Virus record (IMG/VR): IMGVR_UViG_3300029825_000030
Coordinates: 1 to 33,479 of that record
Length of the DNA: 33,479 bases
Strand: one strand, 5' to 3'
Origin: a virus
Each line of letters begins with the position of its first letter. Within the stretch, counting starts at the first letter, position 1. Positions 2,672-33,479 of this stretch are shown here, piece by piece. The position numbers were made by a program, and so were the translations under genes. Under the pieces are notes generated by a model. It was not told the DNA's origin. It searched no databases and saw only the letters and a list, made by a program, of their open reading frames with translations.

Positions 2672-4824
2672 ATTCTCTTCTCCACATTGTCTTTCCGCTG
2701 CGTCCGGAGGAGCGATACCAGGTCAGGCCACTCCGTCCCGAGCGTCAGCGTTAGTTTCTCGCCCTCACGGGCGTACTCTTCGGTGATCGCGACGATCCGG
2801 GCGTCCATCGCGGCGATGTCGGGATACTCGACGTGGACGATATCGCCGAGGTCGAAATCCTCGCCGTAGCGATACGACGCCGTCCGAATGTACTCCACTT
2901 CCAGCGTCGTCGTGTCCCCGTCCTCTGCGAGTTTCTCCGCACCCCGCCGCTCTAGTTCTGCCTCCGTCGCAAGGTCGCGGGCGTCGACGAACCGTTCCCG
3001 GCGGGCGAGTCCGATCAGGCCGTCCCCCGTCCCGACATCGGCCACCGCTCGCGCTGCTGCCTCGCCCTGTCCCGCGACCACCGCGACCGAGGGGGCGAGC
3101 CCGGTGGACTCGTTGTAACCCTTGATCGTGCAGTTGCCGAGCGCTGGACTGAGTTTGACAGAGCCGGAGCGGTCGGCGCCCTGAACCACCTCGAAGTAGA
3201 GCCGCCGATCGTCCCACGACCATCGGCCGCGATACCCGAGCCCGGACACGGCACAGATAGATTCGAGGAGGTCGGCGAGCACGTCGAACCGCGCCTTCTG
3301 TGCCGTGGTGCCCCCGCGCCCGTCGTCGGTGGGGGAGAGCGCGAGGAACGGCACGATCCGCGCGAGGTCGGCGGGTTGGATGGCGTTGACGTCGACGTAG
3401 TGCCGCATCACCGTTTCCGCCGCTCCGGTCTGCTCGTCGTAGCCGGTGCCGGTGCTGACCCCGTGCAGGCACAGCCGGTCGCCGAGGATGCCGATGATCT
3501 CCCGCCCGGCCACTGTCCACTGCTCCGAGGGGCGGCCGGAGGTGTCGACGCTGATCTGCCGAGTCTCGATGAGCCCGAGCCGGTCTTCGCCGTTGCGCCG
3601 GAAATGCACGAGACGGCCGGGGATAAACTCTTTCGCCGCCGGGAGGTAGCGGTTGATCTGTGCTTTCCACGCGCCGGGGCGGCGGTAGCGCCGCGTCCAT
3701 GAGAGGTAGTCGTAGGCGTCGGCGTATCCGGCGAGGGTCAGCGGGGCGCCGGGGTCGCTGTAGACGATCAGCTCGTCCCGGAGCGCGGCGTTCGTGGCGG
3801 CGATCCAGGCAGGGGAGCGGGGGGTGGAGGAGATCGAAACGAGTGCCAGATTACAGTCTAAAAATAACCCGGCGCCTGCTCTGGAGCAGAGATACGTCGG
3901 AACCGCTCCGCTGCTCGATATACCCGTACTGCCCGGCGCAACAGTGCCGACGCCCCCGTCATAGTAGAGGTATGATGCAGCAGCCTGTTGGTCGAGTACC
4001 CCCCAGACATCATGCCACGCCCCGGCATAATCGGGACGGTACTCCGCGCAGATGATATCTCCGACGCCAAAGAACCGTAGGGCCCCATCACCCATACTCG
4101 CCAGCTGATATACCCCTGCGCCCGCCCAAACCCCATGTTCGAGGATCAGGCGCTCGCTCGCGACAGTTCGATCGGTGCGGAATAATGTTTGGACCGAGAA
4201 ACTCTTCCCCCCCATATCAAGAGTGGACGATGCGGGGATAACTCCGTAATCATCCACCCCATCATACGAGTAGCACGCCCCGAGCGGCCCGGTCGTCAGC
4301 GTCGCCCCGTAGATCGTCGCATGGTTGCCGTTCGGCGACGAGTCCAGCAGCAGCCCGCCGGAGGGTTTCATCCACACGCCCGCGTAGCCGTTCGTCCACA
4401 CCTGCTGCGCCGCCGGTTCTCCGGTATCCCCGACATACCCCGTCATCTCGGCGTGCAGCGGATCATAATAGAGATACAGGTGTGTGTCTTCACCGGGATT
4501 GATCCGGGGCACTCGCACCCAGAGATACGCCGTCTGTGTGGCCGCGCTCCACTCCTTGATCTCGACGTAGCACGGCGTCAGCCCGTCGCCTGCGGTGATG
4601 CAGATGCGTTTCCGGTTCGCATCAGAACCGAGCGCCGTAAACACTTTCGAGACGTCGGCGGCGGTCTTGCCGGAGGAGCCGGAGAGTTTGACCATCGCGG
4701 GGAAGTTCTCCAGCACTCCGGTCACGCTCCCGGCGGGGATGGTGAGCAGGATCGGCTCGTTCGCCCATCCCGGCAGCCGGCCGGCCTGTATCTCGTAGAT
4801 GCTGAGAGGATAGGGGTTACTCAC
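2668..4824 (-). CDS. Large tail-tip protein: DUF2341-like N-domain, LamG/concanavalin-like lectin domain and Gp37-like (ReqiPepy6) C-terminal domain
   Basis: 718 aa. DUF2341-like signature: ENFPAMVKL...YVEIKEW...YLWVRVPRI...LYLYYDP. LamG-like signature: DSSPNGNHATIYGA...YDGVDDYGVIP...FSVQTLF. Gp37-like C-terminus: RFVDARD...YGEDFDLGDIVHVEYPD. It sits after Dit. Confidence 0.7.
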   Translation of the reverse strand: MSNPYPLSIYEIQAGRLPGWANEPILLTIPAGSVTGVLENFPAMVKLSGSSGKTAADVSKVFTALGSDANRKRICITAGDGLTPCYVEIKEWSAATQTAYLWVRVPRINPGEDTHLYLYYDPLHAEMTGYVGDTGEPAAQQVWTNGYAGVWMKPSGGLLLDSSPNGNHATIYGATLTTGPLGACYSYDGVDDYGVIPASSTLDMGGKSFSVQTLFRTDRTVASERLILEHGVWAGAGVYQLASMGDGALRFFGVGDIICAEYRPDYAGAWHDVWGVLDQQAAASYLYYDGGVGTVAPGSTGISSSGAVPTYLCSRAGAGLFLDCNLALVSISSTPRSPAWIAATNAALRDELIVYSDPGAPLTLAGYADAYDYLSWTRRYRRPGAWKAQINRYLPAAKEFIPGRLVHFRRNGEDRLGLIETRQISVDTSGRPSEQWTVAGREIIGILGDRLCLHGVSTGTGYDEQTGAAETVMRHYVDVNAIQPADLARIVPFLALSPTDDGRGGTTAQKARFDVLADLLESICAVSGLGYRGRWSWDDRRLYFEVVQGADRSGSVKLSPALGNCTIKGYNESTGLAPSVAVVAGQGEAAARAVADVGTGDGLIGLARRERFVDARDLATEAELERRGAEKLAEDGDTTTLEVEYIRTASYRYGEDFDLGDIVHVEYPDIAAMDARIVAITEEYAREGEKLTLTLGTEWPDLVSLLRTQRKDNVEKRI

Positions 4825-5933: not shown

Positions 5934-8380
5934 AGCGATCCCTCCAGCGCCGCGTCACGGAGCCCGCGCTTTGTGGCGTCGGCGACCTCTGTGGCGGACT
6001 GTGTCTGGGTGTAGATGTTCTGGTTCAGGACCACTTGCATCCCCCCGACCGCGCCTGCTGCCGGTAGGTTCATCCCCCCGCTGGCTGACGCGGACTCGGT
6101 GGGCTCTGCTGCCCCCCCTCCGCCCCCGGCGGCCACACTTGCCGATGCTGCCGATGCTGCCCCGAATGCGGGCGAGGCGTAGGACGGCGTCTGGATGTCG
6201 AGTTTGGGGATCTGCGGCAGCCCGCCGATCGGGTTGCCGTTCTCGTCGTACTCGACATGATATGTGCGGGCGATGGCCGGGTTGTCATTGACGTACTTGA
6301 CGTATTCCGCCCAGTTCGCCGACTTGATATCCAGCGCCTCGTTCTCGATCTCACTCATCAGGTTCTCGTGAGCGATCTGCGCCTCCTCCCGCTTCTCCAG
6401 CGCAACGTCGAGTTTCTCCTGCTCGTCTTCGAGCATCTGGCTGATCTCGTCAAGCCGCGCCTGAGCGCTCGACACGCTCTCGCCGTTCAGCGCCGTCTCG
6501 ATCTCGACCCGCTCCGCCTGTGCGTCGGATGCCTCCTGCAGAGCGTCCTGATACCGATCCTGCGCGTCGGCTACATCGAGCACTGCCTCCCGCTCCCGGA
6601 GGTAAAGATCTACAAGTTTGTCCTTCGCGGCCGCGTCTCCCTGCCTGGCGAGCGCCTCCGTCTCCTTGATCTCATCCTTGAGCGCGGCGAGATCGCGTTC
6701 GGCCCGGATCTTGCGGATATCCGCCCGCTCGATGTCGCGGTCGGCGTCCTTGATCTTGTCTTCGATCCCAAGCGCCTTGTCGATCGTCTCCTTGAGCTTG
6801 TTGTACTCCTTCTGCAGGTTCGTGACCGTCCGCTGGTGCCCGGTGACCGCTTTCGACGCCTGCTCATATGCCGTCTTCGCCCCATCCGCGAGCCGGCGGG
6901 TCTGGAGTTCAACGTCCCGGGCTGCCTGCGCCGCCCGGTTCTCGGCGAGTTTCAGGTCGAGCGCGGAGAGCGCCGCGTCCTTCTCCGCCTGCGTCAGGTT
7001 GCCGATCGCAACGGTGCCGTCCTCAATCGCTTCGGTCGTGTCTTCAAACTCGCGGGTGAGGTCGCCGGTCGCGAGTTTGTGCCAGCCAGTCGCTTCGGTT
7101 GCCCGCCGGGTCGCGAGCGTACCCCGGTCGGTAACGACCGTCTGCGCTTTGAGCGCCTCGATGTTGGCGAGGATCTCCTGCTCTTCCTTCTTGAGCACGT
7201 CGATCTCGTCCTCGATCGTCTCGGTGCTCTTCTTGGTGAGGTCGGCGGTTTCCCGGAGTGCTTCGTTGTACTCGTTCTGTGCCGTCGTCGCGTCGTTCGT
7301 GGACGCGATCAGCGGCAGGAGCACGGCGCCGAGGGTCGTCACCCCGATGATCGCCAGCCCGAGCGGGTTCGCCATGATCGCGGCGGTGAATCCCTTCGTG
7401 GCGATGGTGGCGGCGATCGTCGATGCCTGGTAGGTGCGGTAGAGGGAGATCGTCGATCCTAAGGAGCCGGCGAGGGTGCCGACCGCCCAGATGGCCGGGC
7501 CGGTCGCGGCGGCGAAGAGCCCGGTGGTGACGATCACTTTTTTCGTGCCCTCGTCGAACCCGGAGATCCATCCGATCCCGTCGCGCACCACCGAAATGAG
7601 ATCCCGGGCCATTGGCATGAGGATCTGCCCGAACTCCTCACCGAGTTCTTTGAGGTCGGCGGTGAGCGCTTTCGTCTGGTTGGCGAGCCCGTCCGCCTCC
7701 CGGGCTGCCGCCCCCTGCACGTCGGTCGTGGCCCGCATGATGAGGTTCAGGCGAGCCTGGGCCTTCTCCGCGTCGGTGGCCGCCTCGGTCCCGCCAGCGA
7801 TCCCCATATTGAGGAGCTCCTGCTCGACCGCAGCCTCGCTCAGAACTACACCGAATCGTCGCATCGGCATGTAGGAGCCAATTATGGCGGCCCGCAGGGC
7901 GACGAACGCTTCCTCGTCGGCGACGTTGTGAAAGGCGCCCATATCGACGGAGAGTTGGGTGATCGTCGTCGAGAGTTCTGCACCCTCCTCGCCCACGAGC
8001 CCCATGGCCTTGACGATGCTCATCATCGTGGCCGTCATCTCTTGGAGGTCGGTCCGGGCGCGACCCTGGGCAGTGCCGTATGCCTCCACCCACTCGTTCA
8101 TGTCGTCGGTCATCTCGCCGAAGACCTGCTCGAACTTCGCCTGAGTCTCACTTGCGTCGCTGGCGAGTTTTACCATACCGACACCGGCGAGGGCCAGCGG
8201 GGCGGTGACTTTGAGGGTTAGGTCGGAGCCGATGCTCGTGAGACGCGACCCGATGGTCTTGAGGTCACCCTCCAGCCCCTCGGTGCGTTTGACCGCCTCG
8301 TCGTATGCCCGCGTCAGCCCGGCGATGTCGCCTACGATCTCGACGACCAGTTTCCCTGCGCTTGTTTCACCGAACATCAT
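5930..8380 (-). CDS. Tail tape measure protein
   Basis: 816 aa with a long coiled-coil, a TM-like hydrophobic central segment and a TP901-type core (MGAFHNVADEEAFVALRAAIIGS...RFGVV). It lies between the chaperones and Dit. Confidence 0.9.
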   Translation of the reverse strand: MMFGETSAGKLVVEIVGDIAGLTRAYDEAVKRTEGLEGDLKTIGSRLTSIGSDLTLKVTAPLALAGVGMVKLASDASETQAKFEQVFGEMTDDMNEWVEAYGTAQGRARTDLQEMTATMMSIVKAMGLVGEEGAELSTTITQLSVDMGAFHNVADEEAFVALRAAIIGSYMPMRRFGVVLSEAAVEQELLNMGIAGGTEAATDAEKAQARLNLIMRATTDVQGAAAREADGLANQTKALTADLKELGEEFGQILMPMARDLISVVRDGIGWISGFDEGTKKVIVTTGLFAAATGPAIWAVGTLAGSLGSTISLYRTYQASTIAATIATKGFTAAIMANPLGLAIIGVTTLGAVLLPLIASTNDATTAQNEYNEALRETADLTKKSTETIEDEIDVLKKEEQEILANIEALKAQTVVTDRGTLATRRATEATGWHKLATGDLTREFEDTTEAIEDGTVAIGNLTQAEKDAALSALDLKLAENRAAQAARDVELQTRRLADGAKTAYEQASKAVTGHQRTVTNLQKEYNKLKETIDKALGIEDKIKDADRDIERADIRKIRAERDLAALKDEIKETEALARQGDAAAKDKLVDLYLREREAVLDVADAQDRYQDALQEASDAQAERVEIETALNGESVSSAQARLDEISQMLEDEQEKLDVALEKREEAQIAHENLMSEIENEALDIKSANWAEYVKYVNDNPAIARTYHVEYDENGNPIGGLPQIPKLDIQTPSYASPAFGAASAASASVAAGGGGGAAEPTESASASGGMNLPAAGAVGGMQVVLNQNIYTQTQSATEVADATKRGLRDAALEGSL

Positions 8381-24742: not shown

Positions 24743-25656
24743 GCTATCGCCCCCGTCTCGATCGCCGCGATCGCCGCGAAGATCGGATATGCCTGCTGCG
24801 GAACGACCGCGTTGCCGAGCGCTCTAAGTCGGTCCACCCGATGGGAAATCCCATCAGCCACTCGACCCACATCGGGTTCAGTGAGCCAGAGGCCCCCGAA
24901 CGGATCAGATCGCCAGGCAGGGAATCTCGGCTCCCCGCTCCCAGGGGCAGGGTTGCATTCTTCGCATCGTTCGCCGTAGGAGTTGAGAACATTTGAACCG
25001 CCGTCTGTAGGTTCAGCCCTCCGGTGCCGTGCTCCCCCGCTCCGGTGTGACAATTCGCGTGCGGAGTGGGATACATCCTCGCGGCGCCCACGAGGGTCGG
25101 TACTGGTTTGGATGGGTCGCCCCTCGAGTACTGATAGGCGTGCCCCTGGGCATCTGCCCGCGTCATCGTGGGCCACAACGAAGCACCGGTCCCGCATGTG
25201 CGGGGCACCGACGCCTGCAGCCGGAAATACGAGCGGTCGGCAGGCGTAACCTTCACGCTCCAGGTCAGCACACACATCGTCGAGCGCCATGCTGACGAAC
25301 CCAGCAACATTCTCTCCAACAATCCAAGTGGGCCGGGCGAGCCGCACCACGCGGAGCATTTCCGGCCAGAGATAGCGGTCATCCTCCGCGCCCTGGCGCT
25401 TCCCGGCAACGCTGAATGGCTGGCACGGGAACCCCCCGGAGAGAACGGTCGGCTGTGTAATACGGGCTCTCCTGAGAGCGTCTTCTGTGACATCCTCAAC
25501 ATTCCTCCATCGCGGTAGACGACCGAACCGCCGCCGCAACACCCGAAAAGGGTAATCAGCCCTCTCCACCTGCCCGACGGTGCGGAACCCCGCCCACTCG
25601 GCGGCGAGATCGAGCCCGCCGATGCCGCTGAAGAGGGAGAGGTGAGTGAGTGACAT
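24739..25656 (-). CDS. DNA (cytosine-5)-methyltransferase
   Basis: 305 aa with motif I LFSGIGG, motif IV GGFPCQPFS, motif VI ENV, motif VIII MRDRCFVV and motif X LGNAVVP. Confidence 0.92.
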   Translation of the reverse strand: MSLTHLSLFSGIGGLDLAAEWAGFRTVGQVERADYPFRVLRRRFGRLPRWRNVEDVTEDALRRARITQPTVLSGGFPCQPFSVAGKRQGAEDDRYLWPEMLRVVRLARPTWIVGENVAGFVSMALDDVCADLEREGYACRPLVFPAAGVGAPHMRDRCFVVAHDDAGRCPGARLSVLEGRPIQTSTDPRGRREDVSHSARELSHRSGGARHRRAEPTDGGSNVLNSYGERCEECNPAPGSGEPRFPAWRSDPFGGLWLTEPDVGRVADGISHRVDRLRALGNAVVPQQAYPIFAAIAAIETGAIA

Positions 25657-31385: not shown

Positions 31386-31530
31386 TTTCTCTCTCCTTGA
31401 TTCTGATCAGACCCTCGGATTTCAGGTAATCGCCGATTTTCAGCGGGAATCCGAGGGTGCGTTCGTATTCCGATTCAACAGCCCTGATAGCCTCCGGGCT
31501 GACTTCAAGCGGTTCTGGCTGGCAACTCAT
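31378..31530 (-). CDS. Hypothetical 50-aa protein, below the ORF-track cut-off
   Basis: Hand translation: MSCQPEPLEVSPEAIRAVESEYERTLGFPLKIGDYLKSEGLIRIKERENE*. It fills the gap between two genes. Confidence 0.4.
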   Translation of the reverse strand: MSCQPEPLEVSPEAIRAVESEYERTLGFPLKIGDYLKSEGLIRIKERENE

Positions 31531-31648
31531 AGCCAATCTCCTTCGCGAGTACTTTCCGGACCATGTCCGTGCGGCTCTCGTAGTCCCGCAATTTCCATGC
31601 TCTGTCGAGCACCTTTACCATATCAGGAGGCAGATAGACGTTCACCAT
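31505..31648 (-). CDS. Ribbon-helix-helix (CopG/Arc-like) regulator, first gene of the minus-strand early operon
   Basis: 47 aa from MVNVYLPPDMVKVLDRAWKLRDYESRTDMVRKVLAKEI (ATG 31646-31648), preceded by GGAGGG. The track's N-terminal extension runs into AT-rich promoter DNA. Confidence 0.65.
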   Translation of the reverse strand: MVNVYLPPDMVKVLDRAWKLRDYESRTDMVRKVLAKEIGYELPARTA

Positions 31649-31706
31649 CTTGAGCCCTCCCGACTGATTTTCCTTGTTCACGTATTCACCATAATACAAT
31701 ATGACA

Positions 31707-31744: not shown

Positions 31745-31756
31745 CATTATAGATAT
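31745..31756 (+). promoter_or_regulatory. TATA-like box (cattatagatat) about 25-30 nt upstream of the first CRISPR-repeat-like unit
   Basis: TTATAGATA at 31747-31755. The G-run at 31779 is at the expected TSS distance. The AT-rich ~130 bp upstream resembles a CRISPR leader. Confidence 0.35.
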
Positions 31757-31780: not shown

Positions 31781-31812
31781 GGCCGCACCCCCGCGGGTGC
31801 GTGGATTGAAAT
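31781..31812 (+). CRISPR. Solitary CRISPR repeat-like unit, type I-C-like (32 nt): GGCCGCACCCCCGCGGGTGCGTGGATTGAAAT
   Basis: 7-bp stem (31784-90 / 31795-801), a 4-nt loop and an 11-nt tail TGGATTGAAAT. The 3' 18 nt GGGTGCGTGGATTGAAAT match canonical I-C repeats as I remember them (GTCGCxCxC....GGGTGCGTGGATTGAAAT/C). Confidence 0.6.
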
Positions 31813-31831
31813 CATACTCTATTGACTCAGG

Positions 31832-31860
31832 ACAATTCCCCGGCCTCTGGGGATGAACCG
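31832..31860 (+). CRISPR. CRISPR repeat-like unit, type I-E-like (29 nt): ACAATTCCCCGGCCTCTGGGGATGAACCG
   Basis: Shows I-E architecture: TTCCCC stem, small loop, GGGGATGAACCG 3' end. Compare E. coli GAGTTCCCCGCGCCAGCGGGGATAAACCG and the many GC-rich I-E repeats ending GGGGATGAACCG. Confidence 0.55.
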
Positions 31861-31866
31861 ACATTG

Positions 31867-31884
31867 TACAACGAAAACGTTGTA
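31867..31884 (+). repeat. Hairpin tacaacg-aaaa-cgttgta inside the 31-nt inter-repeat segment
   Basis: Perfect 7-bp stem with a 4-nt loop. I could not assign it to any repeat family. Confidence 0.6.
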
Positions 31885-31891
31885 AGGTGCG

Positions 31892-31920
31892 GTCGTTCCC
31901 CTCTCTGAGGGGATCCCTCG
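31892..31920 (+). CRISPR. CRISPR repeat-like unit, divergent I-E-like (29 nt): GTCGTTCCCCTCTCTGAGGGGATCCCTCG
   Basis: 7-bp stem TCCCCTC/GAGGGGA with a 3-nt loop. It shares TTCCCC...GGGGAT...CG with unit 31832-31860 (16/29 identical), and the stem differences are compensatory. Confidence 0.45.
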
Positions 31921-31927
31921 ATTTTAG
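31921..31927 (+). terminator. Oligo-T tract (attttag) after the last hairpin; possible archaeal terminator
   Basis: TTTT at 31922-31925 immediately 3' of a stable stem-loop. Confidence 0.3.
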
Positions 31928-31973: not shown

Positions 31974-31986
31974 AGTTATATATACT
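31974..31986 (+). promoter_or_regulatory. TATA-like box (agttatatatact) for the plus-strand gene block
   Basis: It lies about 45 nt upstream of the ATG at 32027, with an SD-like AGAGGTGA at 32011-32018. Confidence 0.4.
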
Positions 31987-32026
31987 TGTATATCCAATAG
32001 ATATATTGTAAGAGGTGAACAAAAAC

Positions 32027-32554
32027 ATGCCTGAAAATTTTGTAGGGAAGATTGAGGACGGCGCGATGGTCGAGGCCCCTATCTACGAGGCCCACTCTCG
32101 CGGCAAGAACTGGATGGCGACGATCGAGGCAGACCCGGCAGCCCCCGGGGGCCTGGCGCGAGAGTTTGTCAGGAACGGGCGCGGCCGGTATCTCTATATC
32201 GTCGGCCCGGAGGTCGTCGGCAAGGCGGTCGAGATCGCTGCTGACTACACAAATAGCAGCGGCAAGCGGCGCCCGCACCGCTGGTATGGGGTGGTGCGGA
32301 ACGTGACCGACCGGGAGATCGTAATTGACCGCCACGAGACTTCGGAGCAGGCGATCAGGGCTGCACGGTCTCGCGCGGCGTTCGACGCGCAGATCCGCGA
32401 CCACTTTGAACATATCAAGCCCGATACCGGAGATGTCTCTGACTACTCCGTCCACGACACCGTTGCCCCCGACCGGGTGGCGCTGGAGGAGGAGCGGGCG
32501 CGGCTGCTCGCCCGGGTCGCGGAGATCGACGCGGTGCTCGGGGGTGGGGAGTAA
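32027..32554 (+). CDS. Hypothetical protein (175 aa from MPENFVGK)
   Basis: The track ORF starts at GTG 32015. I prefer the ATG at 32027 because AGAGGTGA lies 8 nt upstream. There is a C-terminal coiled-coil (ALEEERARLLARVAEIDAVL). Confidence 0.6.
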   Translation: MPENFVGKIEDGAMVEAPIYEAHSRGKNWMATIEADPAAPGGLAREFVRNGRGRYLYIVGPEVVGKAVEIAADYTNSSGKRRPHRWYGVVRNVTDREIVIDRHETSEQAIRAARSRAAFDAQIRDHFEHIKPDTGDVSDYSVHDTVAPDRVALEEERARLLARVAEIDAVLGGGE

Positions 32555-33254: not shown

Positions 33255-33316
33255 AATGTTCAGAGGTTGGCTTTCCGGGCGTCGAACGACCCGATCACGA
33301 TCAAACAGGCAGGAAG

Positions 33317-33336
33317 CCCACGACTTTAGTCGTGGG
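33317..33336 (+). repeat. IS left-end subterminal hairpin cccacgac-ttta-gtcgtggg
   Basis: Perfect 8-bp stem with a 4-nt ttta loop, in context aagCCCACGACtttaGTCGTGGGag. It has the same design as the hairpin at 1120-1139. Confidence 0.75.
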
Positions 33337-33356
33337 AGGAATGCCGTCATAAGAAT

Positions 33357-33367
33357 CTATTTATACC
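33357..33367 (+). promoter_or_regulatory. TATA-like box (ctatttatacc) about 30 nt upstream of the tnpB ATG
   Basis: AT-rich TTTATAC motif at 33360-33366, with the ATG at 33393 (equivalent to position 13). Confidence 0.35.
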
Positions 33368-33380
33368 TATAGAGCCAAGT

Positions 33381-33479
33381 ATTCTATATACTATGCTACT
33401 AACGGTAAAGGTGAAGTTACTGACGTCGCAGGCGCAACACGACGACCTCCTGAAGACAATGGAGCGCTTCAACGAAGCC
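33381..33479. repeat. Terminal overlap identical to 1-99. It contains a duplicate of the tnpB start (ATG at 33393) and is not a second gene copy.
   Basis: Same 99 nt as the window start. Confidence 0.95.

Follow-up and report, generated by a model that had tools for sequence, protein, structure and literature searches.

What are two repeat-like units, spaced like the repeats of a type I-E CRISPR array, doing in a non-coding region of a virus genome? The question arises from the IMG/VR record IMGVR_UViG_3300029825_000030, a stretch of 33,479 nucleotides (nt) that is referred to as a whole as the window. The virus is a relative of Methanoculleus virus Blf4, with 86% nucleotide identity over part of the replication module. 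The two units, B and C, are located at positions 31832–31920 in a 376-nt non-coding region between two divergently transcribed gene sets, and a third unit, A, precedes them. The original prediction had described B and C as a minimal I-E array with non-identical repeats, maintained as two distinct Cas6e-type substrates, and had suggested that the segment between them might be a fourth repeat mimic or a processed crRNA-like product directed against a competitor virus. We assign a probability of roughly 0.55 to another reading, namely that B and C with their intervening segment form the 3' half of a small non-coding cassette, a virus-encoded mimic of CRISPR RNA (crRNA) which would divert host CRISPR proteins. 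Related loci and other sequences used for comparison are designated by L numbers. On the plus strand a TATA-like box is followed by unit A, a 19-nt linker, unit B, 31 nt, unit C, a run of four T (T4) and the promoter block of the adjacent operon, as follows (box and T4 by sequence reading; PAM, protospacer adjacent motif):

31746–31756, plus strand: TATA-like box TTATAGATATT, candidate archaeal promoter for the cassette, located some 35 nt before unit A
31781–31812, plus strand: unit A, type I-C-like repeat GGCCGCACCCCCGCGGGTGCGTGGATTGAAAT, with a hairpin at 31784–31801 and an 11-nt handle-like tail, TGGATTGAAAT
31813–31831, plus strand: linker or pseudo-spacer 1 (CATACTCTATTGACTCAGG...); L010 is the only relative in which its first 12 nt are altered
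31832–31860, plus strand: unit B, type I-E-like repeat of 29 nt, ACAATTCCCCGGCCTCTGGGGATGAACCG, with the stem 31838–31843 / 31847–31852 and the 8-nt handle ATGAACCG at 31853–31860
31861–31891, plus strand: pseudo-spacer 2, 31 nt, ACATTGTACAACGAAAACGTTGTAAGGTGCG, with the PAM-proximal 15 nt ACATTGTACAACGAA at 31861–31875 and an internal 7-bp hairpin at 31867–31884
31892–31920, plus strand: unit C, hairpin-only pseudo-repeat of 29 nt, GTCGTTCCCCTCTCTGAGGGGATCCCTCG, with the stem 31898–31903 / 31907–31912 and the non-canonical tail ATCCCTCG
31922–31925, plus strand: T4 run, possible archaeal termination signal of the cassette RNA

The geometry of B and C was found as predicted. Both units comprise 29 nt, they are separated by exactly 31 nt (60 nt from start to start) and they are identical at 16 of 29 positions. 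Their stems, CCCCGG/CTGGGG in B (including one G-U pair) and CCCCTC/GAGGGG in C, differ in a compensatory manner, so that both hairpins fold. The core common to the two units, TTCCCC-N7-GGGGAT, has exactly two occurrences in the 33.5-kb window, which lie on one strand at a distance of 60 nt, compared to 0.00 matches expected from dinucleotide shuffles. The pairing of B and C is therefore not a product of chance.

The features of a type I-E repeat, i.e. the 5' flank, the CCCC...GGGG hairpin and the 8-nt AUxxxCCG handle, are found together in unit B only, and the 3' 12 nt of B are those of the P. aeruginosa I-E repeat. A covariance model built from nine published I-E host repeats, without any viral unit, matched the B unit of the window with 13.2 bits (E=4e-4) when the intergenic region alone was searched. 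In a search of 240 kb, comprising the window and related loci, the five best matches were the B units of the relatives (E 4e-5 to 7e-3). Here the G-U pair lowered the B unit of the window to the seventh rank (13.2 bits, E=0.12). The same model also gave a partial match of 14.4 bits to a perfect palindrome, CCCGCATGTGCGGG, in the cytosine-methylase gene region (25191–25204), which is coding sequence and probably irrelevant to the cassette.

Unit A shows what characterizes a type I-C repeat, the form GTCGC-hairpin-GCGTGGATTGAAAY known from arrays beside I-C cas genes. Bacterial plasmids carry multi-copy arrays that it matched by BLAST. On D. vulgaris pDV the array, with the repeat GTCGCCCCCCACGCGGGGGCGTGGATTGAAAC, adjoins the genes cas3-cas5c-cas8c-cas7c-cas4-cas1c-cas2, and published Bifidobacterium I-C repeats have the same form, GTCGC...GCGTGGATTGAAAT. 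In the relatives the stems of unit A occur in five different versions, all of which fold, beside an invariant GCGTGGATTGAAAY. In L010 an extra hairpin, GCGACCTCCGGTCGC, is located immediately upstream of unit A (about 2925–2945, minus strand of the locus) inside the predicted transcript; it may be a further repeat-like element.

Cas6e cleaves I-E repeats at the 3' base of the hairpin. Cuts predicted after the hairpins of B and C would release the 8-nt handle AUGAACCG, 31 nt and the 21-nt hairpin part GUCGUUCCCCUCUCUGAGGGG, i.e. 60 nt compared to the 61 nt of a canonical I-E crRNA, which bears out the I-E geometry claimed for the locus. For L010 the count is exactly 61. The period close to 61 nt is thus present in both cases, with 60 nt and a 31-nt spacer in the window and 61 nt and a 32-nt spacer in L010. 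The 3' end of the C hairpin is found 52 nt after the B handle in the window and in L004, and the corresponding distance in L010 is 53 nt.

A transcript of this layout might act in the following way. Within one cassette of a Methanoculleus-type tailed virus, unit A would imitate a type I-C repeat and unit B a type I-E repeat. By cutting after the hairpins of B and C, host Cas6e would free an RNA of about 60 nt (31853–31912) that would begin with a correct I-E handle at its 5' end, continue with a pseudo-spacer and end in a hairpin. This RNA would load host I-E Cascade proteins, which would thereby be drawn away from crRNAs targeting the virus. Alternatively it might serve as a partial-match guide parking Cascade on a host promoter, like the 'Cracr' RNAs; such a role may be considered because only the first 15 nt of the pseudo-spacer are conserved. 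Transcription would be expected to start behind the TATA-like box: by eye, a TATA-like element was recognized 20–45 nt before unit A in all four of the upstream contexts, which are unrelated to one another. The T4 run may end the cassette RNA, and an oligo-T run also follows the last hairpin in L010 (T4), L043 (T5) and L015 (T5). Processing, Cas binding and an anti-CRISPR effect are, like transcription, what we infer from sequence.

The related loci contain the cassette in several forms. L004 and L066/67 possess A, B, 31 nt and C and are near-identical to the window, with different A stems and a perfect B stem. L010/L045 represent a diverged version with another A stem, a 13-nt linker, a B unit with another loop base, a 32-nt segment and a third hairpin, X, of the sequence CTGTACCCCACCATTGTGGGGATTTTCTC. 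In L015, A stands alone and is followed by another GC hairpin and T5. A and B are present and C is absent in L046/L042 and L014, and B and C are present and A is absent in L043. Unit B is conserved in L004, L010, L014, L043, L046 and L066, and its variation is limited to the third loop base and one G-U wobble. The hairpins C and X differ in one stem pair, a double change from T-A to A-T, and occupy the same position. Both hairpins are thus kept in the relatives, and the compensatory stem changes, together with loops that vary freely, point to a constraint at the RNA level. The double change in C and X further indicates that C behaves as a terminal pseudo-repeat of which the hairpin alone is needed.

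Between the window and L010 the handle is identical at 12 of 12 positions, the first 15 positions of the pseudo-spacer at 14 of 15 and the 22 nt that follow, as far as the next stem, at 9 of 22, without any indels. The only change within the first 15 nt affects position 12. I-E Cascade leaves every sixth base of the guide unpaired, and position 12 is one of these. With this position free, the seed of pseudo-spacer 2 reads ACATTGTACAAYGAA. The 12 nt following unit A, CATACTCTATTG, are invariant in the relatives except L010 and may constitute a second seed-like segment.

A more specific version of the crRNA mimic, which we regard as possible but put forward only tentatively, is a mixed-type tandem guide cassette. 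One transcript would give rise to an I-C-handled RNA and to an I-E-handled, near full-length crRNA mimic, and the conserved seeds of 12–15 nt would re-aim Cascade at host promoters (of cas genes or other defences) and thereby shut immunity down. If this is true, the cassette would mark the first appearance of a Cracr-type system in Archaea, and two CRISPR subtypes would be chained in a single unit for the first time.

The perfect 7-bp hairpin TACAACG-AAAA-CGTTGTA inside the 31-nt segment (31867–31884), to which the original prediction had drawn attention, is indeed present. With a folding energy of -9.8 kcal/mol it is exceptionally stable in view of its base composition, only 0.2% of the shuffles folding as well. 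The two substitutions of L043 relative to the window are both located in the loop (AAAA to AATG), and the hairpin is stable only in the C-type lineage. The equivalent segment of L010 shows no folding advantage over its shuffles, and the folding of ordinary spacers from the D. vulgaris array matches that of the window segment. The hairpin is therefore not a conserved additional mimic, and the idea of a fourth repeat type had to be given up.

Several results weigh against a crRNA mimic and are considered in this and the following paragraphs, together with the other explanations on which they bear. The first is that the conserved 15-mer had no target in the window, in Blf4 or in the relatives. 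Protospacers for the three variants of the pseudo-spacer, with every sixth base free, were searched in the 2.9 million viral contigs of IMG/VR (plasmid and metagenome collections remained unscanned), and this yielded only the loci themselves. This result speaks against a genuine mini-CRISPR array carried by the virus, whose single spacer would turn the host I-E system on a competing virus or plasmid (superinfection exclusion). Such an array would account for the repeat-spacer-repeat layout and for B as a complete I-E-type repeat, and virus-borne mini-arrays that take part in inter-virus conflicts are known from archaeal viruses. However, true repeats would be near-identical, which the 16 of 29 positions shared by B and C are not, and the spacer has no match in Blf4 or in the related loci. 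Furthermore, the variants share their first 15 nt and diverge thereafter, unlike independently acquired spacers; with only these 15 nt kept between the lineages, the segment does not resemble an acquired spacer against a competitor. We therefore consider a mini-array very improbable and do not retain the idea of a spacer against a competitor virus.

A further point against a crRNA mimic is that unit C matches the I-E repeats weakly. In the intergenic region it reached 5.6 bits (E=0.12) with the I-E model, the hairpin being shared with I-E repeats, the handle not. Of the two Cas6e-type substrates proposed originally, B is borne out by its score, and both hairpins are kept in relatives; C is more convincingly explained as a terminal pseudo-repeat that consists of a hairpin only, and less so as a second complete unit of the Cas6e type. 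Rfam contained no match at the gathering score. An assignment of C to CRISPR-DR58, a family with a 37-nt repeat, was rejected, as the score was 18 bits compared to a gathering score of 38 and periodic arrays occurred only in hot-spring Synechococcus. The constancy of the layout also rests on two lineages, since the C-type and X-type versions are related by descent without indels.

In addition, the part comprising the pseudo-spacer and C can be lost, which had escaped the original prediction. In L043 a TnpB element (751–2305) is inserted in the pseudo-spacer at a TTAC site, and the remainder of the pseudo-spacer and C continue beyond it. L046 keeps a 32-nt scar of the insertion sequence (IS; 8256–8279) and has lost unit C, and in L014 the whole stretch between two AACCGACA direct repeats is gone. 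These viruses can evidently do without the pseudo-spacer-C part, A and B persisting in both L046 and L014. The window itself carries a related IS200/605-type TnpB element (33296–33479 / 1–1150) with terminal hairpins of the form CCCACGAC-TTTA-GTCGTGGG, and the same terminal hairpin is found upstream of the tnpB gene of the window (33315–33338). A third hairpin type, Y, of L046 and L043 had been taken into account as independent support for a fixed distance of 53 nt. It was discarded because Y is the terminal hairpin of the TnpB IS.

These losses would be easier to understand if A, B and C were a cluster of independent decoys of the Racr type, each binding Cas proteins for processing or for the backbone, with the 31-nt distance being incidental and C doubling as the 3' terminal hairpin. 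A and B are retained in L046 and L014, where the 31 nt and C are lost, the spacing between A and B is not constant (13 or 19 nt) and corresponds to no array layout, and oligo-T directly follows the last hairpin. Moreover, the validated RacrIC1 and RacrIE1/2 indicate that single repeat mimics suffice (PMC10651486). On the other hand, the canonical 60/61-nt layout is kept in two diverged lineages, conservation runs 15 nt past B and then stops, and C lacks the handle expected of a complete repeat mimic. The pipeline used to find Racrs also requires solitary units, with no other repeat within 100 bp (PMC10651486). Independent decoys thus appear to be a possible but doubtful explanation.

The search for matching host repeats brought further points against the crRNA mimic. 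No host array with the exact B sequence was present in the metagenome collection; the matches were copies of the viral cassette and one probable chance match. The latter is a 25-nt exact copy of the L010-type B unit in L041 (Ga0326727_10292410, 174–198), located in the 3' end of a bacterial open reading frame for an extracytoplasmic function (ECF) sigma factor, and is probably due to chance in GC-rich DNA. Among 185,579 species genomes no archaeal periodic array of the C type was detected, the only one being the unrelated 37-nt family of hot-spring Synechococcus. The only Methanoculleus CRISPR-Cas system that we found described is of type I-U, in M. bourgensis; type I-E is listed for other Methanomicrobiales or methanogens (Methanosphaerula, Methanospirillum, Methanocella). 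Literature text searches linking Methanoculleus with type I-E or with the repeat motif returned no papers. The IMG/VR contigs studied here are not listed in the supplements of the Racr paper, and the portion of the Blf4 paper's supplement that was accessible contains no repeat sequence.

The genome of the window virus is circular. Bases 1–99 are identical to 33381–33479, and this exact terminal overlap of 99 nt indicates that the genome is closed into a circle of about 33.4 kb (~33,380 bp). A fermentation metagenome (ENA ERZ922853) contains a permuted contig of 33,452 bp. The genes include terminase, tail proteins, a D5-type primase-helicase, RecT and TnpB. No Cas-related domain was detected in the 20 scanned proteins of the window (most open reading frames being unscanned) except in TnpB, with its Cas12f1-like TNB domain. 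Pfam and PHROG scans of the neighbouring genes revealed no known anti-CRISPR; only a ribbon-helix-helix (RHH) regulator and a DUF2080 protein were identified. The cassette is bordered by the following features:

31505–31651, minus strand: RHH regulator gene bounding the intergenic region (Pfam RHH_1; PHROG 'transcriptional repressor')
31976–32019, plus strand: the rightward operon's own promoter and ribosome-binding region (TTATATATA ... AATAGATATATTGTAAGAGGTGAA), with a 24-nt motif kept in all relatives
32027–32554, plus strand: first gene of the rightward variable operon, encoding 175 aa, with homologues in metagenome-assembled genomes (MAGs) of Methanoculleus sp.

The annotation as Methanoculleus sp. 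MAG is that of the NCBI homologues of the 175-aa protein. The 24-nt motif before the rightward operon, AATAGATATATTRTARGAKGTGAA (31996–32019), is conserved in all related loci and the genes behind it differ, the first encoding 175 aa or 159 aa. This points to a common early promoter in front of an accessory operon whose genes vary.

The cassette itself is not found in L068, which is otherwise like L015, nor in more distant relatives retrieved via the neighbouring protein, and the latter supplied no further data on covariation. L015 (5180–5500) and L068 (1000–1200) are similar loci beside a transfer RNA (tRNA) gene, tRNA-Thr, with an integrase in L068, and they differ by the cassette of about 150 nt. 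By this presence and absence the cassette behaves as an insertable module, a distribution that would be typical of accessory anti-defence cargo. In L004 and L066 a fragment resembling a tRNA 3' end is located upstream of the cassette instead.

This setting also bears on an explanation without any CRISPR function. The hairpins and the palindrome TTGTACAA, which is included in the conserved 15-mer, might be control elements at the DNA level (operator, replication origin or recombination site), generic RNA terminators or a decaying captured fragment. A protein-binding site in the DNA could account for the conservation of the 15-mer, given its palindrome, and this is the last of the points against the crRNA mimic. 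The site between divergent operons, beside the RHH regulator and the RecT/replication module, the vicinity of tRNA/att-like sequences and an integrase in some relatives, and the dispensability of part of the cassette would all be compatible with such a role. However, A resembles I-C arrays and B resembles I-E repeats far more closely than chance would allow, both units run in the crRNA sense downstream of a TATA-like box, and compensatory stem changes with free loops indicate a constraint on RNA. Terminators would not be needed either, as the flanking genes diverge from the region. We thus regard a function unrelated to CRISPR as unlikely, though less so than a mini-array.

The cassette can be compared with four kinds of known elements. 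The host regulators CreA and CreR (CreTA; first in the I-B system of Haloarcula) consist of degenerate repeats flanking a pseudo-spacer, which guides Cascade to bind a promoter without cutting it. They are encoded inside host CRISPR-Cas loci, whereas the cassette is found on a virus. The archaeal virus mini-arrays reportedly described by Medvedeva et al. 2019 contain one or two repeat-spacer units without cas genes. Their repeats match those of the host and their spacers fully match related viruses, whereas the repeats of the cassette differ from each other and no protospacer was found in IMG/VR.

Closer relationships exist to Racr and Cracr RNAs. I-C and I-E Racr repeat mimics inhibit CRISPR by competing for Cas proteins (Camara-Wilpert et al. 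2023, PMC10651486), and a non-targeting crRNA lowers interference when merely over-expressed (PMC10651486). Like Racrs, the cassette combines repeat-like sequence and fold with an intergenic position directly behind a promoter, here a putative one, and there is no cas gene among the scanned neighbours. It differs from them in not being solitary, as all three units fall within a span of 140 nt, with 31 nt between B and C, and in the pseudo-spacer and hairpin that follow B and give it the layout of a crRNA. Candidates with other repeat-like matches within 100 bp were discarded by the Racr pipeline (PMC10651486), so that a mixed cluster of three units would probably have been filtered out.

Cracr RNAs come from viral arrays that resemble crRNAs and combine pseudo-repeats with PAM-proximal matches (Liu et al., bioRxiv 10.1101/2024.10.29.618823). 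The succession of B, 31 nt and C corresponds to their arrangement of a virus-encoded pseudo-repeat, a pseudo-spacer and a pseudo-repeat or terminator outside cas loci. Cracr pseudo-repeats are non-identical, as are B and C, and arrays in which the stems differ in a compensatory manner and the seeds are related have been described; I-E and I-C examples exist. Only the PAM-proximal part of their pseudo-spacers matters, and Cracr units are often stacked in one transcription unit. The definition of a Cracr also includes at least 9 PAM-proximal matches to a host cas or creT promoter or to CreA/CreR, for which the conserved first 15 nt of the pseudo-spacer are at most an indirect hint. Cracr arrays address variants of one CRISPR type, whereas here an I-C-like and an I-E-like unit are chained, and the pseudo-spacers of I-E Cracrs comprise 21–24 nt, compared to a near full length of 31–32 nt in the cassette. 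Cracrs were reported only from bacteria and their phages or plasmids, and the word 'archaea' appears nowhere in that paper. We also noticed an I-E mini-array of a bacterial phage (L013, IMGVR_UViG_3300031839_001685, about 618–1042) with stems that all differ (CCCCGC, CCCCGG/CTGGGG, CCCCTC/GAGGGG, CCCCGT). It looks like a Cracr array because its two pseudo-spacers have similar beginnings, ATTGTGGTTGAACG and TTTGTGATTGAGCG.

Anti-CRISPRs made of RNA and the crRNA-like regulators of viruses are recent discoveries, and the functional examples considered here come from bacteria and phages. With a case in a Methanoculleus virus, the strategy would also reach the archaeal viruses that inhabit biogas and methane ecosystems, and one transcript could, if the proposed action is true, address two CRISPR subtypes. 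It would also help to explain how Blf4-like viruses persist in hosts with matching spacers. The locus supplies a testable RNA species, the 60-nt product from 31853 to 31912, and a 15-nt seed that can be compared with the promoters of host defence genes. The cassette is most likely neither a true mini-array nor the site of a fourth mimic but a crRNA mimic similar to Racr and Cracr RNAs, from the known cases of which it differs in being archaeal and in mixing types I-C and I-E.

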